From a virus (taxonomy: Duplodnaviria > Caudoviricetes), in IMG/VR virus record IMGVR_UViG_3300012936_000052, positions 1 to 39,504 of that record: DNA of 39,504 nucleotides, one strand, 5' to 3'. The notes beneath the pieces were generated by a model. The model did no database searches and was not told where the DNA came from. It was given only the letters and a program-made list of their open reading frames with translations. The position numbers and the translations under genes were made by a program. This document shows, in pieces, positions 2,330 to 39,254 of the stretch (its first letter is position 1; each line of letters starts with the position of its first letter).

Positions 2330-2369
2330 AATGTAGTACACTAATAACACAAAACATATCCGACCAGTG
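2330..2369 (-). promoter_or_regulatory. FadR-like box 1 with downstream -10 (TACATT)
   Basis: Minus strand CACTGGTCGGATATGTT (2369-2353), TACATT at 2335-2330; the box also abuts the RBS of ORF 2378. Confidence 0.55.
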
Positions 2370-2377
2370 AGGTTACT

Positions 2378-2623
2378 ATGAGCGCAATCTTATACAAACG
2401 CGTTGACGGTGAAGTAAAGGAATTTCGAGTAGACGCAGTGCGCGTCCATGCATTACTTCAAGACGGTTACTTTGCAAGCCCTGAATTAGCTGATGCTGAT
2501 TCAAATGAAACGGGCAAGCTTAGCAACGAGGAAGTGCGAGAGGCAGCGAAAGAAGCTGGTATATCAAACTGGAAAACCGCCAAGATTGACACTTTGAAGA
2601 AGAAACTCAATGAGCAAGACTAA
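2378..2623 (+). CDS. Small head-region protein with a C-terminal helix-extension-helix (HeH/Rho-N-like) motif
   Basis: GAGG RBS; LSNEEVREAAKEAGI...KIDTLKKKL; position between coat and gp4. Confidence 0.6.
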   Translation: MSAILYKRVDGEVKEFRVDAVRVHALLQDGYFASPELADADSNETGKLSNEEVREAAKEAGISNWKTAKIDTLKKKLNEQD

Positions 2624-3326
2624 AGGCGAGTTAGTTGCCGCAGCCTTCCGCAAAGCGCAAATCTCAGGCATAACCACACAGCCCACAGGTGATGAGCTTG
2701 CCGGTGCTGTGGAAACGCTTGAGGACATGATGCGCGAATTGCTAAGCAAAAACGCTTGCATTAATTACGAGTACGAAGATGAGCCATGCTTAGGCACTGA
2801 CAGCAAAATAGACCCTATGTGGTATCACGCTGTACAGTCGCGTCTTGCATTGCTTCTTTGTTCTGATTACGGTATCGAGCCAAGTGCAACGTTACAGCGT
2901 CAAGCTTCACAGGCATGGTCTAGCATGATAGGCAAGAAAACACTACCGCGGCAAAACGTACAGCCGCGCACAATGCCAAGAGGTAGCGGCAATACATCGC
3001 GCTTGGGTGTTTGGTCGCGTTACTATGGCGGCGACAACAGAGCGCCGATTGATTGCGATACCATAACGCTTGATGTAGGTGAAACATACCCGTTAACGGT
3101 TGACTTTGGTATTTTCTTAACTAGCGATGAAACGATTCAGAAATTTGAAATCCAAGAGATTACAGGCGGCATCACGCAAACCAGCCAACTAACAGAGGAT
3201 TTAAAAGGCGTTGAATTGGTTGTAACGGGTGTCAGCGCTGGCACTAATTCACTTGTAGTAAAAATCACAACTTCACTTGGCAGGGTTAACCTTGAAAAAG
3301 TGTGGGTAACAGTGAGGTCTGTATAA
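2610..3326 (+). CDS. Head-to-tail connector (P22 gp4-like) with a C-terminal beta-rich extension
   Basis: TKGELVAAAFRK, LEDMM, LA..LCSDYGIEP and MPRGSGN resemble gp4; about 95 additional C-terminal residues. Confidence 0.85.
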   Translation: MSKTKGELVAAAFRKAQISGITTQPTGDELAGAVETLEDMMRELLSKNACINYEYEDEPCLGTDSKIDPMWYHAVQSRLALLLCSDYGIEPSATLQRQASQAWSSMIGKKTLPRQNVQPRTMPRGSGNTSRLGVWSRYYGGDNRAPIDCDTITLDVGETYPLTVDFGIFLTSDETIQKFEIQEITGGITQTSQLTEDLKGVELVVTGVSAGTNSLVVKITTSLGRVNLEKVWVTVRSV

Positions 3327-4718
3327 TTGATTCCACTAATCAAAGGTCAGCGCAAAAGTAAGTACGATTACCGCGACAACCTACCAGTTAACATGACAGC
3401 GGTTGTGTCACAGATTGAAGGTGATACGGGTTATCTGTTAGCGCACGACGGTTTAACCGAGTTTGCACAAACAAGTGGTATAGCGCGAGGCGGTTATTTT
3501 AACGAGCGCCTTAATAAGCATTTCCGCGTATCGGGCAACAACCTTGAAAGCGTTGCGACTGATGGCGCGGTTGAGAACCTTGGCGTTATTGACGGTCAAG
3601 GTACAGTATCGTTTGCCGAGTCATTCAACAGCCTTGCAATTGTCGCAGGTGGTAAATATTACCTCTATGACGCAGCAGGATTGCAGGAAGTCACAAGCGA
3701 AAACTTGGGTGTACCGATAGACATTACATGGTTTAGTGGCATTTACGTGATGACTGATGGCGAATACTTGTTTAACACTGACCTACAAGACGAAACTGAA
3801 ATCCGCGTATTAGATTACGTATCAAGCGAGTTTGCGTCAGACCCAATCAAGGGGCTTTTGCGCACAGACAGCAATCAGATTGTAGCGTTTAACCGCTATT
3901 CAACTGAATACTTTTACTTTAACGCTAACAGTAACGTAAATGCTTCACCGCTCCAAGTGATACCCGGTAAATCAAACCGTATTGGCATTGTTGGTACGCA
4001 CTGTAAATGCTTTCTTGATGGCGCGATATTTATCTTAGGCGGGCGCAAAGATGAAAGTCCGTCGATTCACATTTTAAATGGCGCTAACGAGGCGACCATT
4101 GCGACACGAGAAATTGATAAAATTCTAGGCGAGTACACAGAAAGCGAGCTATCAGGCGCAGTGCTAGAGGGTAGAACCGTTGACCGCGACAAGTTTTTAC
4201 TGGTTCACTTACCACGCCATACGCTCATGTACAATCACACAGTCGGGCAGCAACAAGGTATAGCGGCAGCGTGGACGTTTTTAAAGACTAATGAAAATGA
4301 CACATGGCGCGGCATCTATGGCGTGTTTGACCCGCGCATCAGCAAGTGGGTGTACGGTGACAGGCTAGAAAACAAGCTTGGCTATCTTGACCAGCAAAGT
4401 TTTTCACAGTATGACGAGGCGCAAGAGGCGCTTATCTATACGCCAATCATCCCTGCCAAGCGTGTGAGCATAAATCAGATTCAACTTGATACCATGGCGG
4501 GTTACTCTGACCCTGCAATCAGCGTTGCCATGTCTATGTCATACGATGCAGTAACATGGGGCGAGGAACATTGGACGGTGGTGAGCAAGCCTGATAACTA
4601 CAATACGAATTACATCGTTAGGCGATTGGGGTTTGTTGCTCAGTCGTTTAGTTTGCGGTTTAGGTTTATCAGTAAAGATAAAATGGCGTTTTCGGGGCTA
4701 GTGATTAATGATAGATAA
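3327..4718 (+). CDS. Tail hub / DNA stabilisation protein (P22 gp10-like)
   Basis: IPLIKG...DYRDNLPVNM start, beta-propeller-like body, WGEE and RRLG near the C-terminus; synteny; TTG start after GAGG. Confidence 0.88.
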   Translation: MIPLIKGQRKSKYDYRDNLPVNMTAVVSQIEGDTGYLLAHDGLTEFAQTSGIARGGYFNERLNKHFRVSGNNLESVATDGAVENLGVIDGQGTVSFAESFNSLAIVAGGKYYLYDAAGLQEVTSENLGVPIDITWFSGIYVMTDGEYLFNTDLQDETEIRVLDYVSSEFASDPIKGLLRTDSNQIVAFNRYSTEYFYFNANSNVNASPLQVIPGKSNRIGIVGTHCKCFLDGAIFILGGRKDESPSIHILNGANEATIATREIDKILGEYTESELSGAVLEGRTVDRDKFLLVHLPRHTLMYNHTVGQQQGIAAAWTFLKTNENDTWRGIYGVFDPRISKWVYGDRLENKLGYLDQQSFSQYDEAQEALIYTPIIPAKRVSINQIQLDTMAGYSDPAISVAMSMSYDAVTWGEEHWTVVSKPDNYNTNYIVRRLGFVAQSFSLRFRFISKDKMAFSGLVINDR

Positions 4719-16853: not shown

Positions 16854-16870
16854 CCCCGCTATTTGCGGGA
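16845..16870 (-). terminator. Terminator at the convergence of the late and leftward arms
   Basis: CCCGC-tattt-GCGGG with an A-run on its left (T-run on the minus strand). Confidence 0.6.
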
Positions 16871-17284: not shown

Positions 17285-17415
17285 CTATTCACCCCATCCC
17301 ATTGTTTGCTGTTCTCACGTAAAACCGCCACAACTTGCTCTACGGTTATCTTTAACACTTGCGCTATATCTTGTACGCTATCGCCAAACCTGAAACGTGT
17401 CACTATTGAGTGCAT
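17281..17415 (-). CDS. 44-aa HTH-like protein (DUF433-like pattern)
   Basis: MHSIVTRFRFGDSVQDIAQVLKITVEQVVAVLRENSKQWDGVNR; AGGAG RBS; not in the ORF track. Confidence 0.65.
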   Translation of the reverse strand: MHSIVTRFRFGDSVQDIAQVLKITVEQVVAVLRENSKQWDGVNR

Positions 17416-17424
17416 GCTATTCTC

Positions 17425-17628: not shown

Positions 17629-17650
17629 ATCAATCTCCAAAAATAAAAAA

Positions 17651-26177: not shown

Positions 26178-26179
26178 GA

Positions 26180-26425
26180 TTACACTCCGAACCATTCATT
26201 CACATCAGGGCGCATTTGCTCTTTTGTGATTACTCCTTTTACTTTCTCGTGATTCTCTAACTTGATTGCTGCAGTTGCGCTGATTTTGCCTCTACGGAAC
26301 CATTGGTAAACGGTTTGCCTATTAACCCCGCAAGCTTCAGCCATTCTTGTTTTGTTAAAACCAAAGCACCTCCAAACTACGCCTAATGCTTTTCTGTGTT
26401 GCTCTTTTATTTCTGGTGAATACAT
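26180..26425 (-). CDS. Cro/YdaS-like HTH protein
   Basis: KTRMAEACGVNRQTVYQW..RGKIS...MRPD. Confidence 0.82.
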   Translation of the reverse strand: MYSPEIKEQHRKALGVVWRCFGFNKTRMAEACGVNRQTVYQWFRRGKISATAAIKLENHEKVKGVITKEQMRPDVNEWFGV

Positions 26426-26435
26426 TTATCTTCTC

Positions 26436-26684
26436 CTAGTTCCAACTTTCAATATCAGGTCTGCAATCTTTCTTTTTGATTGCGTTATTTACCTCCGGTG
26501 AATCAAGCAATTTCTGTACGCTCGTTTGAGATATAAAACCTTGCTTATACCACTTTTTTGCAGTCTCACGAGAAACGCCGGCAGCCTTTGCAACATTAGC
26601 CAGGTGATTACCGAAGCGAGCAAAGATAAAGTTTGTTGCAACTCTTGCTCTATGAATGTCAATTTTTGTAGCCCACTTGTTCAT
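26436..26684 (-). CDS. Cro/YdaS-like HTH protein (paralogue of the neighbouring gene)
   Basis: LANVAKAAGVSRETAKKW..QGFIS...CRPD; AAGGAG RBS. Confidence 0.8.
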   Translation of the reverse strand: MNKWATKIDIHRARVATNFIFARFGNHLANVAKAAGVSRETAKKWYKQGFISQTSVQKLLDSPEVNNAIKKKDCRPDIESWN

Positions 26685-26714
26685 GGTTACTCCTTTTGTT
26701 TAAATGGGGTTTTA

Positions 26715-26743
26715 ATAGTAAACATGCGTTACCATTATTTCAA
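26715..26743 (-). promoter_or_regulatory. Sigma70-type promoter of the replication operon
   Basis: TTGAAA-17 bp-TACTAT on the minus strand. Confidence 0.7.
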
Positions 26744-26749
26744 TAGTTA

Positions 26750-27120
26750 TTTTGGAAATAAGAAATAAAAGGATTTTTCTGCCCATTTAAGGATGTAAAA
26801 GGGCATTTTCTGCCCGCTCTACAGGCCGCGTTTTTAAAGGGTTTTATGTCTAAATAAGGAAATAGGATAGATAGATAGAGTACTTTACTTACTTACTATT
26901 ATATTTATATGTAATAGGGGTGTATTTTATTTTTAGGTATAGAGGGGGTGTACTGGCAATAGCCCAACATCCTTTTTTTGGCAAGAAAACCAGTAATGGC
27001 AAGGGCTGCAGCGTGGGCAAACAGTATCCTTTTTTCTTCCTTTTTGGTGGCTGATTTGTCCTTTTGCACCCAAAATATGCTTACCCATTAAAGAAATTTA
27101 TGAATAAGTGGGTTATTTAT
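26750..27120. other. Candidate replication origin / control region
   Basis: Longest non-coding stretch; AT-rich core with ATAG and ACTT microrepeats, flanked by AAGG repeats on the left and CCTTTT repeats on the right. Confidence 0.55.
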
Positions 27121-27122
27121 AA

Positions 27123-27161
27123 AGTTTAGTTATGGGTTAGAAATAACAGATCCGACCAGTA
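27123..27161 (-). promoter_or_regulatory. FadR-like box 3 with -10 (TAAACT), firing leftwards into the origin/replication arm
   Basis: Minus strand TACTGGTCGGATCTGTT (27161-27145), TAAACT at 27128-27123. Confidence 0.55.
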
Positions 27162-27179
27162 AATAAACCACAAAAAGTG

Positions 27180-27207
27180 CTGACAACAAAGCGTGAAGTG
27201 CTATTAT
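27180..27207 (+). promoter_or_regulatory. Rightward early sigma70 promoter
   Basis: CTGACA-16 bp-TATTAT with a TGn extended -10. Confidence 0.7.
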
Positions 27208-27254
27208 ATACACATACCAACGAGGCAACGAACAAAAACATTGGAGATTGAGAA

Positions 27255-27395
27255 ATGAACATGGATACACTAGCTAAGCAGTCACTTGAAGCAGTAATGG
27301 AAATTACTGGCACTGATGGAAAAGACGCACACACACAAGAAATTGCTTTCAAGCTTGCATGTGCAGCAATGGCGCAGGAGGTAGCGAGCCGTTAA
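27255..27395 (+). CDS. 46-aa first early protein
   Basis: GGAGA RBS; MNMDTLAKQSLEAVMEITGTDGKDAHTQEIAFKLACAAMAQEVASR; not in the ORF track. Confidence 0.72.
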   Translation: MNMDTLAKQSLEAVMEITGTDGKDAHTQEIAFKLACAAMAQEVASR

Positions 27396-27406
27396 GGTTC
27401 GCTTTT
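27383..27406 (+). terminator. Hairpin/weak terminator after the first early gene
   Basis: AGCGAGCC/GGTTCGCT stem followed by a short T-run. Confidence 0.5.
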
Positions 27407-27411
27407 GTCTT

Positions 27412-27693
27412 ATGGAGGATTACAAACAAGCAGCGCTAAACCTGTTTCCTAATAAATGGGTTGAGGTTAGTGATAATTTCAAAATTGACAACAACGCAGG
27501 AAAGCGAGCAGTCGCCGAGGAAGTATTCAAGGCTGTTTTCGATAAGCTGAAAACTGAGCATGTAGCCGATTCTGTGGCTAAAGCTTTTCTTCGCAGAGCC
27601 TCTAAGTGGGGCACTGATAACAACGGTATTAACGCGGCTAATATGTCAACTGCGTTAATGGCTTCAATCATAGCGATAAGGGATGACGAATAA
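27412..27693 (+). CDS. Hypothetical early protein
   Basis: 93-aa ORF, TAATG coupling to the next gene. Confidence 0.65.
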   Translation: MEDYKQAALNLFPNKWVEVSDNFKIDNNAGKRAVAEEVFKAVFDKLKTEHVADSVAKAFLRRASKWGTDNNGINAANMSTALMASIIAIRDDE

Positions 27694-27878
27694 TGACCCC
27701 CCTAAAAACCCTACTAACCGAATACCCTAGTCAACTATCATTCGCCAGGGCTTACGACATCCACCCGTACCAGCTTAGACGGTGGCTCGATAACGACGCG
27801 CATGTGGATGGTGAGGGTAATGTTTATATACGCACTAAGGGGAAGTTGGTTAAAACAATTGGAGAACAAAACAAATGA
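27693..27878 (+). CDS. Small HTH-like protein
   Basis: SQLSFARAYDIHPYQLRRWL. Confidence 0.65.
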   Translation: MTPLKTLLTEYPSQLSFARAYDIHPYQLRRWLDNDAHVDGEGNVYIRTKGKLVKTIGEQNK

Positions 27879-28447
27879 TTGATGTGAATTGGGATGATAA
27901 CGCAAAGGCGGCGGTTAATACTTATAACGACTGGGCGCTTGAGAATGATTTAGGAATACACGCTTTCTTTGAGCATTTGACAAACAATGGTCACACACAA
28001 CCAAAAACCGTTGCGGATGCGGTGGAGGTTTTCGGAGCTAAATGGCCTAGCAGTAGATATAATTTTGCTTGGTGGGATTCTGACACTGAACAAATGCTAC
28101 TTGGGTGCAATGAGACAAGCGACACTGTATGCACCCGCGCCGAATTCGAAGAATATGTGAAAGAGCAAGAGGGCGAGGAGTGGACGCATGTGGTTAATTT
28201 CGGATTTAGCGAACAAGCACAATGCAAAATCATCAGTGAGCACGGTGATTTCTTGTGGGTGAAAGTTGATGGTGCTGGGTGCCCAGCCACTTACAAGAAA
28301 AGCGAATTAAAACCCATCAAGCCGACGATAAGCAAAGATGCAAAAAGACAACTAGAGCTTTATGTTCAATATCGAGTTGATAAGTACGGCGACTACGCTA
28401 TGAAATCCGACCTATCTGATTACATGTCTCATCACGACATAATCTAA
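27875..28447 (+). CDS. Hypothetical protein
   Basis: GGAG RBS; 190 aa; VCTRAEFEE motif. Confidence 0.75.
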   Translation: MIDVNWDDNAKAAVNTYNDWALENDLGIHAFFEHLTNNGHTQPKTVADAVEVFGAKWPSSRYNFAWWDSDTEQMLLGCNETSDTVCTRAEFEEYVKEQEGEEWTHVVNFGFSEQAQCKIISEHGDFLWVKVDGAGCPATYKKSELKPIKPTISKDAKRQLELYVQYRVDKYGDYAMKSDLSDYMSHHDII

Positions 28448-28485
28448 CTGGTCTAATCTGTTAAGCGCATCCTACGTGTTAAGGT
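28446..28485 (+). promoter_or_regulatory. FadR-like box 4 with extended -10 (TGtTAAGGT)
   Basis: AACTGGTCTAATCTGTT (28446-28462), TAAGGT at 28480-28485; overlaps a TAAGCGCA/TGCGCTTA hairpin. Confidence 0.55.
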
Positions 28486-28512
28486 GCGCTTAGTTTTTAA
28501 AGGAGATTGAAA

Positions 28513-28887
28513 ATGAAATCGTTAATTGAGCATTTAAGTGAGAATCCACTGCAAGTAGCACTTGTTGAGAATGAGGAGTTGAGAGAGCAGCTAGCAAATG
28601 CTAATGAAGAAATAAGTTCGCTACAAAAGAGCAATGATGATATGGGGACGGAATTCAGCAACCTTGAGCGTCATTATAAATATTTAGCAGAAAAAGAAAG
28701 AGATTCGGCTAACGTCTTCCGGTCGGAATTGGAAAAAGCCAATGCAAACCTTAATGATCTATGCGAATCATTAGAATGGTCACTGGGATGTCATAACTTT
28801 GATAAGCGAGAAATGCCAGAAGCATACGAGTTATGGGAAGATTGTTACTCTACACTTGAGCGAATACGCAAGGAGTTAGCAAAGTGA
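28513..28887 (+). CDS. Coiled-coil protein, paralogue family member 1
   Basis: AAGGAG RBS; LREQLANANEE...ERIRKE. Confidence 0.75.
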   Translation: MKSLIEHLSENPLQVALVENEELREQLANANEEISSLQKSNDDMGTEFSNLERHYKYLAEKERDSANVFRSELEKANANLNDLCESLEWSLGCHNFDKREMPEAYELWEDCYSTLERIRKELAK

Positions 28888-29069
28888 AAGCAACAATATT
28901 AGTGCGAGATTTGGTTAAGCTTATCGCCAAGCATGGTGATTTGGATATGCGCGTTGCAGTTGATGTAGGAAATGGTGCAGCGGTTGAGGCGAGAGCTAAG
29001 TGTGTTGACGAAGTTAGCAACGATAAGCAGGGCGTATTTGCATTCGAAATCTACGGAGAAGAACAATGA
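28884..29069 (+). CDS. Hypothetical protein
   Basis: Coupled GTG start after AAGGAG; LIAKHGDL motif. Confidence 0.7.
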   Translation: MKATILVRDLVKLIAKHGDLDMRVAVDVGNGAAVEARAKCVDEVSNDKQGVFAFEIYGEEQ

Positions 29070-29323
29070 TAAACGAACAAGAACTAGCCCAGGCGGTTGA
29101 GCGCTTGCGTGAGGGTGATGATAACGGGTTATTGGTTAAGTACGACAAGGTAATGGAAGTTGTGATGCATAACGACGTGTTTGTGTATGAGATACTAGAC
29201 GACCTGTTAAATGGGAATCTTGAAATGGCAAAAAGCCAGCTTGATGAGCTATTTGAAGATACTGCGGCGATGCTATTACGCGAAGCATACAGAACAAAAC
29301 TAGAGCATGAAGCGGGGTTGTGA
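29066..29323 (+). CDS. Acidic hypothetical protein
   Basis: GGAG RBS, ATGA coupling. Confidence 0.7.
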   Translation: MINEQELAQAVERLREGDDNGLLVKYDKVMEVVMHNDVFVYEILDDLLNGNLEMAKSQLDELFEDTAAMLLREAYRTKLEHEAGL

Positions 29324-29766
29324 TGAATTACGAAAGCATGAGACTAGGCTGTATAGAGTGGAAGGGATACAAGAATAAGGATGGCTATGGCTCTAAATTT
29401 TATAATGGAAAAGTTAGAAGGGCTCACAGGCTGGCATACTGCAATGATAAAGGTATAGATATAGAAAGCATAAATGGGAAGGTTGTTATGCACCTTTGTG
29501 ATAATCCATCATGTGTTAATCCTGAGCACTTAAAACTATCTACTCAAGAAGAGAATATAAAGGACAGGTGCGAAAAAGGAAGAACAGCAAGGAATTATGG
29601 AAATAAAAATCAAGCAAAGCTGACAATGGAGAATGCTGAGGTTATTTTAAATATTTACAGGAAAGGGTGCAAAGAGTTCGGGTGCAATGCCCTATCAAGA
29701 AAACTTGGCGTTTCGCCAGCAACAATACACCATATTGTAACTGGAAAGAATTGGGGGTTGGTATGA
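29320..29766 (+). CDS. HNH endonuclease (homing type) with C-terminal HTH
   Basis: CIEWKG...GYG, AHRLAY, VMHLCDNPSCVNPEHL...EN. Confidence 0.92.
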   Translation: MMNYESMRLGCIEWKGYKNKDGYGSKFYNGKVRRAHRLAYCNDKGIDIESINGKVVMHLCDNPSCVNPEHLKLSTQEENIKDRCEKGRTARNYGNKNQAKLTMENAEVILNIYRKGCKEFGCNALSRKLGVSPATIHHIVTGKNWGLV

Positions 29767-30119
29767 ATTATAGTGATTGTTCAGATTTTGAGATTAATAG
29801 GCGTGTTGCTGAGTTGCTTGGTAAATTTGAGTATGTCTCAGACTGTAATCATAATGGCGGTAGCGCTGTGCTGTGCTACTCGCTTAGAGCTTGCGATGAG
29901 TACGACCCCTGCAACAACCCAAGCGATGCTTGGTCGATTATTGCTGAGAATAAGATTGATATAGAATTACCGCATGAAGAGGTTAACCAGATAGGATTTG
30001 CAAGCAATCACTTTGAAGGTGTTGTGCATGAGATAATGCCGAATGATAACCCACTACGCGCCGCTTGTATCGTTTATCTTATGATGCAGGAGGGTAAGCA
30101 ATGTTTGGCCAGCCAATAA
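29763..30119 (+). CDS. ninX: NinX-family protein
   Basis: MNYSDCSDFEINRRVA, YDPCNNPSDAWSII.ENKI, NPLRAACIVYLMM; ATG 29763 overlaps the HNH stop. Confidence 0.8.
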   Translation: MNYSDCSDFEINRRVAELLGKFEYVSDCNHNGGSAVLCYSLRACDEYDPCNNPSDAWSIIAENKIDIELPHEEVNQIGFASNHFEGVVHEIMPNDNPLRAACIVYLMMQEGKQCLASQ

Positions 30120-30325
30120 CAAAGCCAGCGCAGCATAAAGCAACTTATACCATCAGTGAGCTGCTTGCTGAGTTCGACAACGACAAGACCGCACTAGCTA
30201 AATCGCTAAACGTCAACCGCAGCACAGTGCGAAAACATGCGCCGCTAGGTGAATCAAGCCATGTAGTTTTGAGGAATGGCGATAAGTACAAGTTGTACGT
30301 TATAACTAGGTTAGGTGGCGATTGA
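30101..30325 (+). CDS. NinH-like HTH protein
   Basis: TISELL...KTALAKSLNVNRSTVRKH...HVV..NG. Confidence 0.65.
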   Translation: MFGQPITKPAQHKATYTISELLAEFDNDKTALAKSLNVNRSTVRKHAPLGESSHVVLRNGDKYKLYVITRLGGD

Positions 30326-30543
30326 TGCGCCACTTAATCGAGCAATTGCGCCATGCTAAGAAAGAGCAAGGCTTAACACACGCAGAGCTATCACACAGAA
30401 GCGGCGTTGGATTCAACACGATAAAGCGATGGTTTTACAAGCATGGCACACTACCAAAAGCGGCAGACTTAGAGGCTGTCGCTAATGTGCTGGGGTATCG
30501 ACTTGGACTGGTCAGAGTTGTTAGTAATACAGAAAGCGAGTAA
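30325..30543 (+). CDS. XRE-family HTH regulator
   Basis: QGLTHAELSHRSGVGFNTIKRW...P...LEAVANVLG. Confidence 0.85.
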   Translation: MRHLIEQLRHAKKEQGLTHAELSHRSGVGFNTIKRWFYKHGTLPKAADLEAVANVLGYRLGLVRVVSNTESE

Positions 30544-30546
30544 GGT
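30506..30546 (+). promoter_or_regulatory. FadR-like box 5 with -35 TTGTTA / -10 TAAGGT
   Basis: GACTGGTCAGAGTTGTT (30506-30522) in the 3' end of the XRE gene; TAAGGT at 30541-30546. Confidence 0.55.
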
Positions 30547-30570
30547 TTAGTTTTTACAAGGGAGATAGAT

Positions 30571-31023
30571 ATGAATAATATATGTGACTTTATGACAAAA
30601 GAAGAGCTTGATAACGCTCTAATTGAAAGAGATAGCCTACGCGCACAACTAGAAAATGCTAATGAAGATTACAAAGCGCTTTTCTCAGCTTTTGAATCAT
30701 GCCAAGACGAATTAAAAAAGGCTAATGATCGTGTGAAGGAGTTGGAGGTTAGATACTCTGAACTTCGCAATAATGTCGGGATTTCTTCGGCTAACATTGA
30801 ATTAGAAATGAACAACAAAAACCATAGAAATAAAATCCTAAGTCAAGCAAAGATTGAGGTGCTTCAAAAGATAAAATCAAAAGCTGTTGACCTAATGCAT
30901 AAAAATTGGATTATTAGTCAATCTCCCAGCGTAGAAAAGTTGATGGAGCAGCCCGTTTGGTTAAGCACGGATATTATTGATTCAGAAATAGAACAACTAC
31001 GCAAGGAGCAGGATAATGAGTGA
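30571..31023 (+). CDS. Coiled-coil protein, paralogue family member 2
   Basis: LRAQLENANED...EQLRKEQ. Confidence 0.78.
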   Translation: MNNICDFMTKEELDNALIERDSLRAQLENANEDYKALFSAFESCQDELKKANDRVKELEVRYSELRNNVGISSANIELEMNNKNHRNKILSQAKIEVLQKIKSKAVDLMHKNWIISQSPSVEKLMEQPVWLSTDIIDSEIEQLRKEQDNE

Positions 31024-31411
31024 TAAATACATCAAAGAAATAACGCAAAATATCCCAAATAATGAGCTAAACGCAGCATGCGATGCCTTGATGAATAACA
31101 GCTTAAATGAGACCTCAGATTATGAAGAAGTCTCCATGGAAGAGCTTAATGAGTACATTGAAGGGCTTGAGTGTCAGGCGGAAGAACTTCGCACACAACT
31201 AGCAAAGGCTAATGAGCGTGTTGCTAAATTAGAGCGCGAAAACACAAACGGGAATGCAGCCGCAGAGCTTCTTATTTGGTGGGCGAAAAAGTTAAGTAAT
31301 GCGCCGAATGAGGATTTGAAAGAGGTCATTAGAATTGGTTACAAGCGCATTGTTAATTTGGCCAATTTAATAGGTGAAGAACAACTACGCAAGGAGCAAA
31401 ACAATGACTAA
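31016..31411 (+). CDS. Coiled-coil protein, paralogue family member 3
   Basis: LRTQLAKANER...EQLRKEQ. Confidence 0.78.
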   Translation: MSDKYIKEITQNIPNNELNAACDALMNNSLNETSDYEEVSMEELNEYIEGLECQAEELRTQLAKANERVAKLERENTNGNAAAELLIWWAKKLSNAPNEDLKEVIRIGYKRIVNLANLIGEEQLRKEQNND

Positions 31412-31862
31412 CACAGAAACAATGATTAAAGCGCTTCGGGTGTTATCGGAGGATATACAGAGCGGTGACGGTGTAGCGAATGCTTGTGTTGCTGACGCTG
31501 CCAATATGATTGAAAACATGAGCACACAACTAGCAAAGGCTAATGAAGAGTATAAAAACCTCTTTGAGATATTCGAAAGTTGCCAAGCAAGAATGTTGAG
31601 ATATAAATCAGCAATAGATGAAGAATGTGTTTTGTGGGATTTCACAGTAGACGAGAAAGAACCAAGAAAAAGCATTCAAAGGCTGCTTGACATAACAGAC
31701 GCTGTTGCTAGAGATCCTGATGTAAATAGCAAGGCTAGGAAATTCGCCATAGAGAATCAAATTAAGGGGGCTAAGGCTTTGATTTATGCCTTCCCGCTTA
31801 ACGCTTGTGACCAAATGAAAGAATGGGTAGAACAACTACGCAAGGAGCAAACCAATGATTAG
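31404..31862 (+). CDS. Coiled-coil protein, paralogue family member 4
   Basis: ATG 31404 after AAGGAG; LSEDIQSGDGVANACVADAA, TQLAKANEE...EQLRKEQ. Confidence 0.78.
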   Translation: MTNTETMIKALRVLSEDIQSGDGVANACVADAANMIENMSTQLAKANEEYKNLFEIFESCQARMLRYKSAIDEECVLWDFTVDEKEPRKSIQRLLDITDAVARDPDVNSKARKFAIENQIKGAKALIYAFPLNACDQMKEWVEQLRKEQTND

Positions 31863-31992
31863 CTTTACAAACTACGTGTTATCAAACCCGCTTGTCGTGT
31901 ACGGCATCGGTGCAGCTATGGCAATTATCTGCTTTGGCGGAGCTTTGGCGGTGGGTAGTATTGTCCGTGCGGTGGCGAGGAAGGAAAGATAA
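31855..31992 (+). CDS. 45-aa membrane peptide
   Basis: MISFTNYVLSNPLVVYGIGAAMAIICFGGALAVGSIVRAVARKER; AAGGAG RBS; not in the ORF track. Confidence 0.7.
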   Translation: MISFTNYVLSNPLVVYGIGAAMAIICFGGALAVGSIVRAVARKER

Positions 31993-32174
31993 TGGGTATT
32001 AAACTTAGAGCGATTCCACTGTTGTTTATTTTTATACCGATAACTTTGTTCTTGTTTTTATGTAGCGCGCTTGGGTATTGTTTTTTGTGGTTAGGCTCAG
32101 TGCTTAGCGATATTGGAAGTATAGCAACACCGCCCTCAATGAAGCGTGTCATGGTGTGGATGAAAAAGGATTAA
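31992..32174 (+). CDS. 60-aa membrane peptide
   Basis: TAATG coupling; long hydrophobic segment. Confidence 0.7.
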   Translation: MGIKLRAIPLLFIFIPITLFLFLCSALGYCFLWLGSVLSDIGSIATPPSMKRVMVWMKKD

Positions 32175-32176
32175 TA

Positions 32177-32521
32177 ATGCTTGATTTTATTAATGAATAT
32201 ACTTACGGCTGGCATCTGTTAATTGCCTTATGTATCATTTTCACAGTTCCAATTTGTTTTTTTATTGGCGAATGGCGTAAACCAATAGTGCCTAATGACG
32301 ATAGGTTAATTGATATGCCTGATAACATAGAAAGCCCAGAGCATTTTTCGCAATGGATTGATTCAATAGACCTAGACAAGCCAAAAAGAGTTGATGAAGT
32401 GCAGGGTTTGAAGGATTTCTTGGAAAGAGAGATTAGCTCAGGAAGATTAGTTGTGGGAGACCCGACGAAGAGTGTAATTAAAGGGTTAAAAGGTAGCTTT
32501 GGAGTTAAGAAAAGATGCTAA
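32177..32521 (+). CDS. Single-TM membrane protein
   Basis: AAGGA RBS before ATG 32177; WHLLIALCIIFTVPICFFIG. Confidence 0.7.
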   Translation: MLDFINEYTYGWHLLIALCIIFTVPICFFIGEWRKPIVPNDDRLIDMPDNIESPEHFSQWIDSIDLDKPKRVDEVQGLKDFLEREISSGRLVVGDPTKSVIKGLKGSFGVKKRC

Positions 32522-32697
32522 CCCCACAATTCGCATACATGCACCAAGGTCGCAAGCTATACAAGACAATCAAAGGCGCTAACACAACGCATGAAGCTAT
32601 CAATGCCTTCACACAGCACATGAAGCAAACGCACAACGTTGATGTGATGCATGTTAAATATCCGTTTGACTTAAAGTATGTGCCGTGCAATGATTAA
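32515..32697 (+). CDS. Hypothetical protein
   Basis: GGAG RBS; last gene before the terminator. Confidence 0.65.
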   Translation: MLTPQFAYMHQGRKLYKTIKGANTTHEAINAFTQHMKQTHNVDVMHVKYPFDLKYVPCND

Positions 32698-32742
32698 ACC
32701 CGTTGGCAATATCTCCCAATCCACTGCCAACACTTCCCACAT

Positions 32743-32768
32743 AGCCTGCCTAGCGCAGGCTTTTTTTT
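32743..32768 (+). terminator. Intrinsic terminator ending the early rightward arm
   Basis: AGCCTGC-ctagc-GCAGGCT followed by a T-run. Confidence 0.88.
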
Positions 32769-32815
32769 GTGCGTCTTTAAGCGTATACTAGCCTCATAAA
32801 CACAAAGGCGCATAC

Positions 32816-33955
32816 ATGGCTTACTATCTAGCATTCACATCCGGCAGCGAGTACGTTGATATAACATCACCAATATCAGTCAGCGGTGACGGGGTGTTAG
32901 CTGAAATTGATTTTGTTTACAAAGGTGCATCAAACAATGTTATCTGTGGCGGCACATCATTCAGTGATTATTGGCGTATAGACAACGATAACCAGTTCAG
33001 AATATCAATTGCAGGTAGCTCCAATAAAGCAAAACTTATATCGCCTCTAGTGGTTGGCAATAGGTACATGCTCAAGCTTGTGCGTACTGGCTCTTCGGTA
33101 GAGGTAAGAGATTCAACAAATACGGCGATAACAAGCGCTACAAACCTAAATGCTAATCCTTTTGTAATCGGTAAAATCGGCTCTTTCCATAACGGCTCTT
33201 CAAACCTAACGATGGACTTGTACGGTTTCAAGGCTGGCTCTGAGACTTACAGCCCAAGCCTTTCAAATGGAACTGGCAATATACTGCCAACAGTGTCAGG
33301 CTCAAATCAGGGTGTGTTAACCAACTTCCCAACCGACAACAACCAATGGGTATTCTACGATGATGGCGGCGGCTCTGTTACGGCTAATGTGACAGAAACA
33401 AGCGACAGTGCGACAGAATCTAGCGCAATATCAATAACATCCAACATAACAGCGCAAATCACAGAAACCTATAGCGATGCAGCAGAGTCAAGCACTGCAT
33501 CGATAACAACGCTTGTAACAGCTAGTGTGACTGAGCTTTCACAAGACGCGACAGAATCAATCGCGGCTACGATTACTAATAACCTGGTAACGCTTAACGT
33601 CACAGAGATAGCGCAAGATTTCACGGAGTCGGTTAGCGCGACGGTAGCGGGTAAGGTTAGCGCGTTAGTCACAGAATTCACAGCGGATGCGTCAGAATCG
33701 TCAACGCTATCAATCAGTGCTAACATAAGCGCAGCAGTAACGGAAATAGCGCAAGACTTCGCTGACAATATCGGCGTTAATGTAGTTGGTAGTTTCACGG
33801 TAGAGGTCACAGAAGCCACGGTTGATTTCGACGATGCGTGTTATATCCAGTTGCCAGTTCAGCGACTAGTGGCGCGTAAAACAATTTCAGTAAACAGTAG
33901 GCGGAGTGGCACAATTAGGGTTACACGACGCAATCACGTAATAAGGGTTAAATAA
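32816..33955 (+). CDS. Putative virion fibre: lectin/LamG-like head, seven ~23-aa Thr/Ser/Ala repeats, Arg-rich tail
   Basis: Beta-rich N-terminal ~185 aa, repeats of V/I-T-A-x-V-T-E-x3-D-x2-E-S, C-terminal RKTISVNSRRSGTIRVTRRNHVIRVK. Confidence 0.6.
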   Translation: MAYYLAFTSGSEYVDITSPISVSGDGVLAEIDFVYKGASNNVICGGTSFSDYWRIDNDNQFRISIAGSSNKAKLISPLVVGNRYMLKLVRTGSSVEVRDSTNTAITSATNLNANPFVIGKIGSFHNGSSNLTMDLYGFKAGSETYSPSLSNGTGNILPTVSGSNQGVLTNFPTDNNQWVFYDDGGGSVTANVTETSDSATESSAISITSNITAQITETYSDAAESSTASITTLVTASVTELSQDATESIAATITNNLVTLNVTEIAQDFTESVSATVAGKVSALVTEFTADASESSTLSISANISAAVTEIAQDFADNIGVNVVGSFTVEVTEATVDFDDACYIQLPVQRLVARKTISVNSRRSGTIRVTRRNHVIRVK

Positions 33956-34353
33956 TGTCACAACGTTCAGTAGCAGAATGCAATGCAGCGCTAGGTGCGA
34001 GAAACACGCTAGCAAACGGCGGCTCAGTAGAAATCAGAAGCGGCGCACCCGCTGATATTGATAGCGCGGCAACAGGCTCAGTGCTTGTTACGTTTCCGCT
34101 AGGCAATCCTGCTTTTGGTGCGGCAAGTAACCGCACTTCTAGCCTAAACCTACCGGCAGCAGTAACAGCGAGCGCAGACGGCACAGGCGCACCGTATCAC
34201 TATGTATTAAAAGATAGTGGCGGCAATGTACTGCGAAACGGCACAGCAGGCACAGCAGGTACAGACATGATTCTTAGTGCTGCAACGTGGTCGGCTGGAG
34301 ATGATGTAGAAATCACTGCATGGACCACATCAGAGGGCAAAGGGATCAACTAA
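33955..34353 (+). CDS. Small Ala/Gly/Thr-rich virion structural protein (fibre subunit-like)
   Basis: EIRSGAPADIDSAATGSVLVTFPL..PAFGAAS...GTAGT.GTDMIL; TAATG-coupled to the fibre gene. Confidence 0.65.
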   Translation: MSQRSVAECNAALGARNTLANGGSVEIRSGAPADIDSAATGSVLVTFPLGNPAFGAASNRTSSLNLPAAVTASADGTGAPYHYVLKDSGGNVLRNGTAGTAGTDMILSAATWSAGDDVEITAWTTSEGKGIN

Positions 34354-34595
34354 TGTTCACACCGATAGTTGGTATCTATCGGTTCGGTGAGAAAGGCGGT
34401 ACATACGAATCAATGATAACGGTAACGTTTTATGGTAGTGAGGCTACGATTAACGGTTTATGCACAGGTATAAGCAAGTCGCAGGCTCGCAAATTCGTAA
34501 ATGATATGTGCTTGCTTGGTGTTCACACGCTAAGATATAAACGAAAAGGCAGGTTAAAGGTCGTGCATATACGAGAGAAGTTAACATGCGAGTAG
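34353..34595 (+). CDS. Hypothetical protein
   Basis: ATG 34353 coupled to the previous stop; basic C-terminus. Confidence 0.6.
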   Translation: MFTPIVGIYRFGEKGGTYESMITVTFYGSEATINGLCTGISKSQARKFVNDMCLLGVHTLRYKRKGRLKVVHIREKLTCE

Positions 34596-35137
34596 GCAAC
34601 AAAGAGACTAAGCCAAGGGTGACGAGGAAGTACAAGACAGCCGATGAATTGCAAGCGGCGATTGATGCTTACTTTGCTAATCCTCACGAAAAAACCATCC
34701 TGTACAAAGGCGAAGAAATACGCGTCCAAAAGGTGACGGTTGAGTATATCGCCATTCATCACCTTGGGTTTAAGTCTAAGCAGTCGCTCTATGACTACCG
34801 CAATCGATACCCACAAGAGGGTTACGACGAGGTAATTAATAACCTTATTGACCAAGTTACCGACTATTGGAAGTCGCAAGGTGAAAACGGTAATGCGACA
34901 TTTGCGGCGCTTATGGTTTCTACGCTTGGTCGCGATAAAGAGCGCATCAAATTCGATAAAGAATCAACAGCACTCCAAAAGGCTAGACTACTGCTAGAGA
35001 AGGCAGGTAAGAGCGAAATATCGCTCGACACCATGCAGAAGCTAATGACAGGAGTTAAAGCTGAATCAGACATAAACAAAGTTGACGAACTTGAGAGGCT
35101 TGTACGCGAATTGGCAGATATGGCGGGGATTAAATGA
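34586..35137 (+). CDS. terS: Terminase small subunit
   Basis: KYKTADELQAAIDAYF...LGFKSKQSLYDY (gp3-type N-terminus); directly upstream of TerL. Confidence 0.8.
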   Translation: MRVGNKETKPRVTRKYKTADELQAAIDAYFANPHEKTILYKGEEIRVQKVTVEYIAIHHLGFKSKQSLYDYRNRYPQEGYDEVINNLIDQVTDYWKSQGENGNATFAALMVSTLGRDKERIKFDKESTALQKARLLLEKAGKSEISLDTMQKLMTGVKAESDINKVDELERLVRELADMAGIK

Positions 35138-36810
35138 GCATAGCCGCACTACGTAAGCAAGTTGACCAAATAGCGCCAATCATTAAAGCGCAATCGGGCA
35201 ACGTAGAGGAAACCGTTTACGGCGTAGTGGATAGAATCAACGAAGATGGTACGCCACACTTTATCCGCAAGTGGAAAGGTGTAATCGGCAACATGCGACC
35301 AACGGATGAGGAGCCGACCATTTACATCATTGAGAAACTAGAGCCTGTCATACTCACGCATAAGAAGTATAAATGCCTATACGGCGGCAGGGCTGGCACC
35401 AAATCCATCATGGTAATGGATACGGTTGTCGGTGACGTTAACGCCAACGGCTCTAAAGTGTTTGTGCTACGTGAGCGCATGAAGTCGCTTAAAGATACCA
35501 TTTACGCGGGTATTGTAGGTCGTATCGATGCGCTAAAAATTAAAGGATTTACGCCTGTTCCGTCTGAGCGTGAAGTGCGCCACAAGAACAGAGGCAAGAT
35601 AACGTTTGGCGGTATGCAGAACATTATCGACATGAAAGGCTCATTCGAATACAAATACTTCTTGATGGAAGAGGCAGCGCGAACAAGTCAGCAGACCATT
35701 GATACACTAGGTCCTACATTACGTGGCGTTGATGGTGCAGAGCTTATCTATGTATGGAATCCAGAATCAGCAAATGACCCTATGAGTCTAGAGTTTATCG
35801 TGCCATTCCAGGCGCAGTTAGACAAAGACGGTTATTACGAGGATGACTATCACATGGTTATCAAGGTAGGTTTTGAGGATAACCCGTGGTTTATGCACGA
35901 CCAATCACTACGCGAAGAATACGAGAAAGACTTGCAGAAGAAAAATGAGGGGCGTATGAGCGAATCGCGTTTCAACCATATCTGGCACGGGGCATTTAAC
36001 GATGACATTGATAACAGTGTTATCAAAGCAGATTGGTTTGATGCGTGTATTGATGCGCATCAAAAACTGGGCTTCGAGGCTCGCGGCGGTAAGGTTGCAG
36101 GCTTTGACCCGTCAGACGTTGGTAACGATGCAAAAGGTTACTGCTTACGCCATGGTGTGGTTTTTACTGATGTGCGCGAGATTGATGCGGAAGACGCGAA
36201 TAGAGCCTTTGACATTGCTTCACGTGATGCTAATGCTTCGGGTGTTGATACATTTGGTTGGGATTGTGACGGCATGGGCGCTTTATTGCGTGATCAAGCG
36301 GTTGCGAACTTTCAAGGCACGAAAGTGCATACTTTCATGTATAAAGGCTCTGAGGGCGTACACAACCCCGAAGCAGTATTTAAACCCGTTGGCGAGTATC
36401 ATATCCGTGACAGTAAAAAGAACAAAGACGTATTTGGCAACAAGAAAGCGCAAAATATTATTAGCTTTGCAGAGCGTGTATACAAGACATGGGAAGCGGT
36501 AGTGCACAAAAAGTATATTGACCCTAGCGAGTTGGTTAGCTTTGACAGTGATAAGATACCCGCTAACTATCTACAAAAGCTAAGGTCAGAGGCGTGTCGT
36601 ATGCCGTTAAAGCCAGCCGATACATTTAAGTTTTACACTAAGCAAGAAATGCGTAACGGCATTAAACAGCAGGACGGAAGCAAGATAGTCATACCATCAC
36701 CAAACCTATTTGACGCGGTGGTGCTATCTTTTGACAATAGTGCTAATATAACGCAAAGCAGAGTAAACAAAACACATAGGCCACAAGCCATGCGACCAAT
36801 GGGGCGTTAA
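35134..36810 (+). CDS. terL: Terminase large subunit
   Basis: GGRAGTKS Walker A, FLMEEA Walker B, PTLR, WNP, GFDPSD nuclease motif, SPNLFDA. Confidence 0.95.
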   Translation: MSIAALRKQVDQIAPIIKAQSGNVEETVYGVVDRINEDGTPHFIRKWKGVIGNMRPTDEEPTIYIIEKLEPVILTHKKYKCLYGGRAGTKSIMVMDTVVGDVNANGSKVFVLRERMKSLKDTIYAGIVGRIDALKIKGFTPVPSEREVRHKNRGKITFGGMQNIIDMKGSFEYKYFLMEEAARTSQQTIDTLGPTLRGVDGAELIYVWNPESANDPMSLEFIVPFQAQLDKDGYYEDDYHMVIKVGFEDNPWFMHDQSLREEYEKDLQKKNEGRMSESRFNHIWHGAFNDDIDNSVIKADWFDACIDAHQKLGFEARGGKVAGFDPSDVGNDAKGYCLRHGVVFTDVREIDAEDANRAFDIASRDANASGVDTFGWDCDGMGALLRDQAVANFQGTKVHTFMYKGSEGVHNPEAVFKPVGEYHIRDSKKNKDVFGNKKAQNIISFAERVYKTWEAVVHKKYIDPSELVSFDSDKIPANYLQKLRSEACRMPLKPADTFKFYTKQEMRNGIKQQDGSKIVIPSPNLFDAVVLSFDNSANITQSRVNKTHRPQAMRPMGR

Positions 36811-38859
36811 ATGCTAGACTTTCAAGACTTAAAGCGGATGCAAGAAAAAGCGTATCAACATGGTTATGATACGCGCTTGAAGGCCGCAGACGACATGCTG
36901 TTTGCATGGGTAACGCAATGGGATGATGAATATCTCAATGGCACTGACTTAGCCACTCGCTTTGAGTTTAACATTATACGAAAGGCGCAAAGGCAAATTC
37001 TCACCGATTTGGTGCTTAACCCTATTCAAGTCGATTTCGACCCCGTTGACGACACGTTTGAAAAAGCTTCTGAGATTATGGATGGTGCGTATCGTGCCGA
37101 TATGCGTAACAACAAATCACAAGAGGCTAAGAAGAATGCCAACCAAGAAGCGGTTGTGTGTGGTGTTGGCGCATGGCGTTTAACAACCGAGTATCGCAAT
37201 AATCTTGAAGATGACGACAGGCAGCGAATCATACGTGAGCCAATCTTTGAGGCTAACAACCGTGTGTTTTGGGATCCGAATGCGCAGCTAATCGACAAGT
37301 CAGACGCTAAGTATGTGGCAGTGCTTTACCCTTACTCATTTGACGCTTATAAGGAGCTATGCGAAGAGTTGGGCTGTGAATATACGCACCCGTCAAGCTT
37401 TGCAGAGCCTGAGCATAGTTATACATTCCCATGGATTGGCGCAGAAGACAAAGTTAATATCGTTAAGTTTTATCATCGCGTATTGAAGAAAGTTAAGCAT
37501 TACACCTTTGCGGATGAATTTGGTAATCGTCGTGTATTGCAGCAAGACGAAGTTGACGAAGATGATTTAATCGATGGTGGCTTTGAGTTTGAATCAGAGA
37601 AAACCGTTAAGCGTTACGTCGTTACTGAGTACATTGCAAGCGGTGCCGGCATTATGGCTGAAAATCGTATTGCGGGTGAGCATTTACCTATTATCCCGCA
37701 GTATGGTGAGCGTCAGTTTGTTGAAGGCGAAGAACATTACGAAGGTATTGTACGCCTAGCTAAAGACCCGCAGCGTTTACGTAACTTCCAAATGTCATAC
37801 CTAGCCGACATTGTGAGCCGTAGCGGTAGAAGCAAGCCAATCTTCACCGACGAGCAGATTGCAGGCTATGAGGATATGTATAACCTCAATGGGCCTGATA
37901 ACAATTACCCGTACCTAAAGCAAAACCATTACGACAGCAACGGTCAGCCTTTACCTGTTGGCCCCGTTGGTCAAACGCCTGACGCAAACGTGCCTCCTGC
38001 ATTAATGGCGGCAATGGCTGAATCGCGCGCAGCGGTGGACGACGTAGCAAGCCCAGGTTTACCGCAGGACATCACTGACCCGTCATTGTCTGGCAAAGCC
38101 GTGCAAGCATTGCAGAAACGCTTAGATATGCAGTCTTATACGTACCAAGACCACCACAAGTACGCTATGCGTCGTGACGGTGAGGTGTATGCATCAATGT
38201 TCCGTGATGTAATGGACAGTGAGCAAGAGATTGTACTTGTTCAGCTTGACGGCACTACATCGAAAGAAACGATTAACAAAGCCGAGATTGATTGGTCAAA
38301 TATGCAAACGCAGATTGTCAACGATGTGCGCAAGATGATGTTTGATGTGTATGCGGATATTGGTCCATCGTTTGAATCGGTTAAATCGCAAAACCGTGAA
38401 GAGTTGAAAGAATTAATCAACGGATTACCACCGGGCGACCCAATGCGCAACATACTATTAAACGAGTACCTGACCATGCTCGAAGGTTCGCACATGGAAG
38501 ACGTGCGCGACTATGCGCGTAAACAGTTAATTCTTCAAGGCATCAAGAAGCCAGAGACACCAGAAGAAGAGCAGATGCTAATGCAGGCGCAGCAGAATCA
38601 ACAGCCTGATGCGCAAACGCAAGCCTTACTTATGGAAGGTCAGGCGAGAATGCAAGAAGGTCAAGCGGCGATTATGAATGAAGAGAATGACCGCATCAAA
38701 CTGCAAATAGACCAATATAAAGCTGACACAGACCGCCAGAAAGTAATTATCGAAGCGCAGAAAGCAGGGTTACAAATGCGTGATATTGCGGTGAGTACAC
38801 AAGGAAAGCAAATCGACAATGCAATGAAACTAAGGCAAGGTGTGAGCGAGGGGCGTTAA
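36811..38859 (+). CDS. Portal protein, P22 gp1-like
   Basis: QWDD, YRADM, GVGAWR, WDPNA...DKSDA, YEGIVRLAKDPQRLRN, Q-rich C-terminal barrel. Confidence 0.93.
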   Translation: MLDFQDLKRMQEKAYQHGYDTRLKAADDMLFAWVTQWDDEYLNGTDLATRFEFNIIRKAQRQILTDLVLNPIQVDFDPVDDTFEKASEIMDGAYRADMRNNKSQEAKKNANQEAVVCGVGAWRLTTEYRNNLEDDDRQRIIREPIFEANNRVFWDPNAQLIDKSDAKYVAVLYPYSFDAYKELCEELGCEYTHPSSFAEPEHSYTFPWIGAEDKVNIVKFYHRVLKKVKHYTFADEFGNRRVLQQDEVDEDDLIDGGFEFESEKTVKRYVVTEYIASGAGIMAENRIAGEHLPIIPQYGERQFVEGEEHYEGIVRLAKDPQRLRNFQMSYLADIVSRSGRSKPIFTDEQIAGYEDMYNLNGPDNNYPYLKQNHYDSNGQPLPVGPVGQTPDANVPPALMAAMAESRAAVDDVASPGLPQDITDPSLSGKAVQALQKRLDMQSYTYQDHHKYAMRRDGEVYASMFRDVMDSEQEIVLVQLDGTTSKETINKAEIDWSNMQTQIVNDVRKMMFDVYADIGPSFESVKSQNREELKELINGLPPGDPMRNILLNEYLTMLEGSHMEDVRDYARKQLILQGIKKPETPEEEQMLMQAQQNQQPDAQTQALLMEGQARMQEGQAAIMNEENDRIKLQIDQYKADTDRQKVIIEAQKAGLQMRDIAVSTQGKQIDNAMKLRQGVSEGR

Positions 38860-39056
38860 GCCCCTTCTCTTAGATTAAAACCCTTCTCCCAATCCGCAGC
38901 CTCTATCGGGTGATAGCCGTAAACCTCTTCCCACATAATGTCGAAGTGCGTATTCATTAAACCTATATCGTCGTTTTCGTATCGTGCGCCGTTGTACTCG
39001 TTGATTACGGATTTAGTGCAAAGCTTTGCTCGCATTTTGTTTGCTTTGTCGTTCAT
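38856..39056 (-). CDS. Hypothetical protein (antisense moron)
   Basis: MNDKANKMRAK..., 66 aa; ATG overlaps the upstream TGA. Confidence 0.6.
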   Translation of the reverse strand: MNDKANKMRAKLCTKSVINEYNGARYENDDIGLMNTHFDIMWEEVYGYHPIEAADWEKGFNLREGA

Positions 39057-39184
39057 AACTTCACACCCCACTTTTCACGTAACGCGCTGTAATGTTCACG
39101 GCGCTTATCGGCTTTCTCTTTTTGAATGGCTTTATAGATGCGGCGTATCATCGCCTAACGGTTTAGCTTTTGTTCGTAGGTCAC
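39053..39184 (-). pseudogene. Small basic ORF interrupted by an in-frame TAG
   Basis: AAGGAGA RBS, GTG 39184: MTYEQKLNR*AMIRRIYKAIQKEKADKRREHYSALREKWGVKL. Confidence 0.5.
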
Positions 39185-39213
39185 AATCAATCTCCTTTGT
39201 TTTATTTCCGTAA

Positions 39214-39254
39214 AAACTAGCATTAAGGTACACGCTTTACAAGTCTGACCAGTT
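39214..39254 (-). promoter_or_regulatory. FadR-like box 6 with -35 TTGTAA / extended -10 TGcTAGTTT driving the moron
   Basis: Minus strand AACTGGTCAGACTTGTA (39254-39238), 17-bp spacer, TAGTTT at 39219-39214. Confidence 0.65.

Follow-up and report, generated by a model that had tools for sequence, protein, structure and literature searches.

FadR, a sensor of acyl-CoA, activates fabA and is released from its site by acyl-CoA (PMC4537474, PMC4273635, PMC4259882, PMC7148568). In Shewanella the protein binds the site at its own fabA, acyl-CoA reverses this binding, and the loss of fadR brings fabA expression down to about 40% (PMC4537474, PMC4273635). The fadL gene is a member of the FadR regulon in Shewanella (PMC5343134), and is repressed by FadR in E. 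coli (PMC3460868). The FadR-activated promoters of fabA and fabB in E. coli, and of fabA in Shewanella oneidensis, have a site of 17 bp whose left half is intact and whose right half ends in TGTT, placed 18 bp before a TAnnnT hexamer (PMC4537474, PMC4273635). Boxes of the same type are found in the DNA considered here, a stretch of 39,504 nucleotides from a virus of the Caudoviricetes (IMG/VR record IMGVR_UViG_3300012936_000052, positions 1 to 39,504; hereafter the window), which contains six of them. Unlike the sites of the host fabA and fabB promoters, the phage boxes are present in several copies, stand before genes not involved in lipid metabolism, are spaced more often by 17 than by 18 bp, lack the FabR operator and have an extended -10 in about half of the cases.

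Phage promoters that are read by a host regulator have been described as well. Sites for the host master regulator CtrA occur in promoters of unrelated phages of Alphaproteobacteria, where they are proposed to report the state of the host (‘lytic deferment’), and both binding and regulation by CtrA have been shown by experiment (PMC9437464), whereas the evidence for the phage FadR boxes is that of sequence comparison. The FadR-type boxes are likewise promoter sites shared by unrelated phages of one host group, but the signal would be acyl-CoA rather than the cell cycle, and the sites are dispersed as single cassettes. Host LexA at the promoters of phage GIL01 is another case of a host sensor wired to a phage promoter, modulated by a small phage protein (PMC4551915), and a FadR-like head encoded by some relatives of the phage studied here may do likewise. 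LexA, however, represses, senses DNA damage and acts in temperate phages (PMC4551915), whereas no integrase match was found among the genes of the window and the geometry of the boxes implies activation.

The six boxes are located exactly where the original prediction had placed them, strands included: 2353–2369, 18870–18886, 27145–27161 and 39238–39254 on the minus strand, and 28446–28462 and 30506–30522 on the plus strand (each is named below after its first base, e.g. box 2369). They occupy intergenic DNA or gene ends, as had also been claimed, with boxes 2369, 27161 and 39254 being intergenic, 18886 and 28446 overlapping a stop codon, and 30506 lying in the last codons of a helix-turn-helix (HTH) gene (30322–30543). 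The pattern ACTGGTCNNANNTGT, which was derived from the boxes themselves, has 6 matches in the window with at most one mismatch, compared with 0.49 ± 0.72 in 100 shuffled sequences (maximum 3). An independent matrix was built from seven published FadR gel-shift probes (PMC4537474 Table 2, PMC3460868 Table 2); with it, the six boxes take ranks 1–6 of the 78,976 17-mers in the window, and 6 matches score at least 15, where 200 second-order Markov nulls average 0.275 (maximum 3). Restricting the matrix to the four fadL/fadD probes leaves the boxes in the first six places. The boxes are 17-bp sites close to the FadR palindrome AACTGGTCnGACCAGTT, from which they differ at 3–4 positions (3–8 in the published probes), they score like validated sites, and the site bound by Shewanella FadR is four bases away from the class of the commonest phage boxes. 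Two further ACTGGTC words (1566+ and 8364−) fall within coding sequence and have no right half. The boxes recur in related phages, and the six boxes of the window are confirmed as real and as matching the FadR binding site.

In E. coli fabA the FadR site is at -40, and the sequence of the fabA probe shows a spacing of 18 bp. Counted from the A of ACTGGTC, the TAnnnT hexamers begin at positions 34, 34, 33, 34, 35 and 35, as originally described. A weak -10 follows five of the boxes at 17 bp (2369, 18886, 28446) or 18 bp (30506, 39254), so that the claimed position near -40, over a weak -35, stands for these five, which share the geometry of the fabA/fabB promoters. It does not stand for box 27161, which is at about -61 of a rightward promoter and whose leftward hexamer, at a spacing of 16 bp, is present without being conserved in three relatives, which speaks against a functional role. 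Because all six boxes match the FadR site and five have the fabA-like spacing of 17–18 bp, host FadR likely binds and activates here. Early in infection a host FadR dimer would probably occupy about -38/-39, covering the TTG of a poor -35, and recruit sigma70 polymerase, as a class II activator, to the weak -10s of early and accessory promoters, and long-chain acyl-CoA would release it from the phage boxes. At box 27161, FadR would be bound at about -61 of a strong rightward promoter, as an activator or as a repressor. No GntR-type gene was found among the frames of the window, either by Pfam or by profiles of host FadR and of phage GntR-type heads, in agreement with the original prediction, and since the phage lacks such a gene the reader would be a host factor. 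Comparative evidence thus strongly supports FadR-type boxes in a fabA-like activating geometry which would be read by a host factor. Of the original proposal that host FadR is the activator, the box type, the geometry and the lack of a phage GntR gene hold, while origin transcription is unsupported, box 2369 has no gene to drive here and the first ORF after box 39254 is interrupted.

A scan of IMG/VR with the box alone returned 83 loci in 70 non-redundant contexts, 24 of which have TAnnnT exactly 17 bp downstream, with no more than three at any other offset from 8 to 29. In most of these 24 contexts a ribosome-binding site and then a start codon come next. From the IMG/VR scans, 44 promoter-like loci were picked, belonging to 38 records with 1–8 boxes each (L numbers below denote loci and sequences of phages and hosts alike). 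A comparison set of 28 box-carrying records was made of 25 IMG/VR records (one in part; G numbers below) and three cultured phages, to which the window was added. The -10 is found at 17 bp in 61 of 112 unique contexts and at 18 bp in 26, counts that are partly circular since records were chosen for having one such site. These 87 contexts form 45 flank families with almost no information in the spacer and a nearly invariant box, the latter being partly circular too, as the search pattern defined the box. TG at -15/-14, the mark of an extended -10, is present in 22 of the 45 families, and a TATAAT hexamer in one. The genes downstream are mostly small and vary by phage, and some are recombination or methylase-like. 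The same class is found in the siphoviruses PB15 and XX1924, in the podovirus H6/1 and in IMG/VR records of 34–47% GC, its carriers including a record of 37% GC with eight boxes and one of 142 kb. Box, spacer, -10 and ribosome-binding site may together be a portable cassette that recombination places before changing accessory genes. As for the opposite strand, no fixed promoter is tied to the boxes, no -10 offset being dominant in 110 contexts; a few families have a consensus -35 there at 9 bp or 16–18 bp from the box, and in seven loci (L371, L321, L328, L373, L318, L324 and L344) all of relatives, the box lies 9 bp upstream of such a -35 and constitutes a second geometry, centred at about -52. 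A sigma54 or other alternative-sigma promoter was rejected by comparison with consensus sequences, as the GG-N10-GC spacing is absent. Parts of the region are contained in 11 marine metatranscriptome runs; the four that were examined consist of assembled contigs of up to 35 kb, mostly from relatives, and as such are uninformative on starts, strand or level.

The record is a complete virus genome of 39.5 kb with direct terminal repeats, and combines P22-like head, portal and ejection genes with a T1-like replication module. Among cultured phages, those closest to it in nucleotide sequence are PB15 and XX1924 of Alteromonas and H6/1 of Pseudoalteromonas. The host is probably Alteromonas-like, because the dUTPase shares 93% identity with its counterparts in PB15 and XX1924, and the endolysin 84% with that of H6/1.

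On the host side, 120 of 121 host-family genomes have a fadR gene (TIGR02812 over cut-off), and the DNA-contact residues of FadR (residue list from PMC4259882) are seen in three proteins. A box, an 18-bp FabR-type spacer and TAAnnT were found at 29 of 30 host-family fabA loci, and the boxes of the window are 1–5 mismatches away from these sites. The FabR operator present in host fabA spacers is absent from the phage spacers, which are not conserved, so that the phage promoters would work like fabA promoters rather than being copies of them. A GTDB-wide scan with the phage architecture gave 23 matches: eight precede fadL-like genes of Shewanella or Photobacterium (one called by Pfam and the rest by their common N-terminus), seven on phage-like contigs in metagenome-assembled genomes (MAGs), one before a Pseudoalteromonas gene of unknown function and seven inside genes of unrelated taxa. 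With a looser box-plus--10 pattern, the host family gave 30 matches, compared with 11 for the reversed control, and 16 of the 30 are at sites linked to fatty acids (seven before fabV, five before malic enzyme genes and four between fabG and fabF). At fabV and malic enzyme promoters FadR-type boxes are observed in activating geometry (L256–L258, L260, L261, L263, L264, L266, L267, L271, L272, L284 and L424); neither of the two is named as a FadR regulon member in the part of PMC5343134 consulted. When 30 host matches to the box only were examined, 27 proved intergenic, and 12 flank genes for acyl-CoA thioesterase, acyl-CoA dehydrogenase, FabH-like proteins, malic enzyme or what we take to be FadH-like proteins. 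Two FadR-type boxes (L413, L414) are followed, some 140 bp further on, by a type II dehydroquinase gene, a gene which often precedes accBC.

Three of the boxes (18886, 28446 and 30506) precede accessory operons with ribosome-binding sites. Box 18886 overlaps the end of the dUTPase gene, at the same position as a box in PB15 and XX1924, and is followed after 17 bp by an extended -10 (TG-T-TACATT, hexamer at 18847–18852, −) and by accessory genes of unknown function (16859–18818, −) coding for 84, 56, 118, 71 and 141 aa, with small open reading frames (ORFs). At about 18550–18500 on the same strand, upstream of the 56-aa ORF, there is a second copy of the spacer, -10 and ribosome-binding site of this cassette, without a box; in G128, G129, G151 and G161 the cassette matching this copy does have one. 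Box 28446, identical in PB15, G128, G139, G141, G151 and G161, has its extended -10 (TG-T-TAAGGT, hexamer at 28480–28485, +) after 17 bp and is followed by a coiled-coil ORF, small ORFs, an HNH nuclease, a NinX-like gene and two HTH ORFs (28513–30543, +). The spacer and the DNA past this -10 form an inverted repeat (28463–28491) ending in a T run, similar arrangements are observed after other boxes, and the repeat may be a terminator for upstream transcripts or a second operator. Box 30506, one mismatch (over positions 2–17) away from the commonest host fabA site, has the hexamer TAAGGT (30541–30546, +) after 18 bp and three coiled-coil ORFs with small ORFs downstream (30571–32761, +), up to a terminator-like hairpin at 32743–32761.

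The remaining boxes differ in what follows them. Box 2369 is between the major capsid gene and ORF 2378, and its TACATT hexamer (2330–2335, −), 17 bp away, abuts a terminator-like hairpin located after the capsid gene (2289–2320, flanked by A/T runs). This promoter leads into a ribosome-binding site and a gene (a moron) in G128 and G139, which have about 780 and 450 bp, respectively, between -10 and terminator. The moron is absent from the window, and box 2369 is here an empty (vestigial) antisense moron promoter which drives no gene. The palindrome TAGTGTACTA, overlapping the -10, is common to positions 2336–2345 and to the post-capsid slots of PB15, XX1924, G128, G151 and G161. Box 39254, between the portal and scaffold genes, has an extended -10 (TG-C-TAGTTT, hexamer at 39214–39219, −) after 18 bp and then an antisense moron (38856–39184, −) made of a 43-codon ORF and an intact ORF of about 66 aa. 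The 43-codon ORF (39184–39053, −) has an in-frame amber stop at codon 10, and is open in G128 and G139. On the plus strand the box occupies the spacer of a site, TTTACA-18-TATACT, directed towards the scaffold gene. The latter is split by the terminal repeat (39378–39504 and 1–993) and has a GTG start near 39330.

Box 27161 had been proposed to act in origin transcription, which is unsupported and was rejected: H6/1, G128 and G161 do not conserve its leftward -10, although they keep the box and the rightward promoter. This sigma70-like promoter (CTGACA-16-TATTAT with TG, 27180–27207, +) ties for the best consensus score (10/12) in 26000–39504, and the box is centred about 61 bp upstream of its predicted start. 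It precedes a 46-aa ORF with a ribosome-binding site (27255–27395, +), conserved in G161, at the end of which there is a terminator-like hairpin (27383–27403); the replication operon has a sigma70-like site of its own at 26743–26715. To the left of the box, a 32–40 bp element (27062–27101) is 92–100% conserved in PB15, XX1924, G128, G139, G141, G151, G152 and G161. The phages that share it have differing replication modules, and it is possibly an origin or a packaging-related signal.

The boxes could be bound by host FadR and yet repress, as they cover the -35 of extended -10 promoters which may be self-sufficient, in which case fatty acids would induce the genes. The TG found in 22 of the 45 families is in line with this, as is the occurrence of the same architecture upstream of fadL in Shewanella and Photobacterium, given the repression of E. 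coli fadL (PMC3460868). In a variant of this explanation the rightward scaffold/capsid promoter, whose spacer is filled by box 39254, could be blocked by FadR bound there. We consider repression unlikely, as the geometry is the one found at FadR-activated fabA, the -10 hexamers are poor (with the single TATAAT among 45), the offset between box and opposite-strand promoter is not fixed, and the spacing is held at 17–18 bp. Sites for repressors tolerate varied positions. It is also conceivable that the cassettes are constitutive sigma70 promoters and the box a leftover from a host promoter that was captured, retained as homology for the recombination that exchanges accessory genes. Similarity to relatives does start and stop at the edges of boxes 18886 and 28446, two cassettes are empty or broken, and the copy near 18550–18500 does without a box. 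A relic is nevertheless quite improbable in view of the box being nearly invariant over the 45 families beside a spacer with almost no information (with the partial circularity mentioned above), of the left half of the phage box being nearer to the FadR palindrome than that of the host fabA site, and of the missing FabR operator.

An activator encoded by the phages themselves, be it a Cro/HTH protein of the window or the FadR-like head of some relatives, is improbable as the reader of the boxes. In T4 (MotA box) and Mu (C/Mor) a fixed box replaces the -35 in a promoter class read by phage-encoded activators, and the present boxes resemble these systems in replacing the -35 and differ in that no shared phage regulator was found. 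The window does have five HTH-like ORFs (two Cro-like genes and three others), but when its proteins were searched in the 28 box-carrying records (tblastn, E 1e-3) none had matches in over 11 records and the HTH genes had them in 2–6, some of the records being fragments and very distant homologs being able to escape tblastn; no cognate regulator gene common to the box carriers was thus found. A small GntR-type winged-helix head, encoded by frames of 83–89 residues, is present in G128, G131, G157, G161 and PB15, four of them with the HGK wing of FadR (ORFs at L001 (PB15) 28542–28808, L315 16946–17209, L334 15912–16163, L337 2028–2276 and L395 1462–1725). Because only 4 of the 20 box carriers that are complete or cultured have its gene, which lies downstream of a box in three (G128, G161 and PB15), the head appears to be an accessory pointing to the FadR family; the window has no GntR-like frame, and the motif marks fatty-acid genes of the host. 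The PB15 head ORF is unannotated in its record (KX982260), and one protein came out of a search for homologs of the G161 head. The search of PDB with a profile was circular, host FadR being part of the profile. Weak Pfam GntR matches in G136 and G147 were not confirmed by the profiles of host FadR and phage heads. Two ORFs were also set aside: 17987–18343 as a hidden regulator, having no Pfam or PHROG family and Atlas matches under 0.9 and being in 4 of the 28 records, and 27875–28447 as a box factor, being in 10 of the 28 and also in two box-less Alteromonas phages. Operators of the FadR subfamily resemble one another, and another host regulator of the GntR family, such as PdhR, might read the boxes instead. 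Four of the 30 box-only host matches (L428, L430–L432) are about 200 bp upstream of pdhR-like genes, and in a single-sequence search one phage head matched PdhR slightly better than FadR (E 1.2e-4 vs 8e-4), which does not separate the two families. Reading by such another regulator is very improbable indeed: the operator beside host pdhR starts is AATTGGTAAGACCAATT, whereas the phage boxes have ACTGGTC instead of an AATTGGT-type half site, with C at positions 3 (87/87) and 8 (86/87), both of which are in the search pattern, and the host matches cluster at fatty-acid genes.

Several observations weigh against activation by host FadR. FadR binding, promoter starts and activation at the boxes are what we infer, as is the host of the record, which is deduced from the identities of phage genes. 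Taken by itself, the box shows no overall enrichment across 301 host-family genomes (51 matches, about 57 in the control), and fadR is absent from three of the four tested MAGs holding box-bearing phage contigs, although these are stand-alone contigs and may well be mis-binned. The spacing is 17 bp at three of the five class II sites and 18 bp at all 29 host fabA sites, 17 bp having sequence parallels in the host at malic enzyme and fabV genes. Two of the six cassettes are empty (2369) or lead to a broken first gene (39254), and the promoters with an extended -10 may fire without an activator. A box array is moreover missing in twelve further cultured relatives, among them Pseudomonas phage AH02, whose capsid is 66% identical. 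The Pseudomonadaceae are outside the FadR-bearing groups, also according to the regulon table in the PMC5343134 supplement. Since two Alteromonas and six Vibrio phages among the twelve lack the array as well, the trait is lineage-limited.

The promoter class is real, widespread and testable, and directly so in three cultured phage–host pairs (PB15, XX1924 and H6/1) which have the same promoters. The box can serve as a marker to locate promoters and slots for accessory genes, and hints at the host group of phages not yet cultured. Control of phage promoters by a host regulator is already known (CtrA, LexA); no report of FadR sites in phages was found in the literature covered, which excludes most subscription journals. 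The least certain point is whether the phage has been selected to read the lipid status of its host, rather than merely using an abundant activator. Tentatively, and with somewhat less than even confidence, we propose that marine phages of Alteromonas, Pseudoalteromonas and their kin form a gene-sharing network in which a class of early and accessory promoters is under the control of the acyl-CoA sensor of the host, so that the infection programme would shift when the host feeds on lipids (in blooms, on particles or from lysates). In some members the sensor-less FadR head would override this switch, and the phage studied here would depend wholly on its host. Phages are already known to read host regulators of DNA damage and of the cell cycle; if the proposal is true, a sensor of lipid metabolism would add a nutrient input, tying phage expression in abundant marine copiotrophs to the supply of fatty acids.

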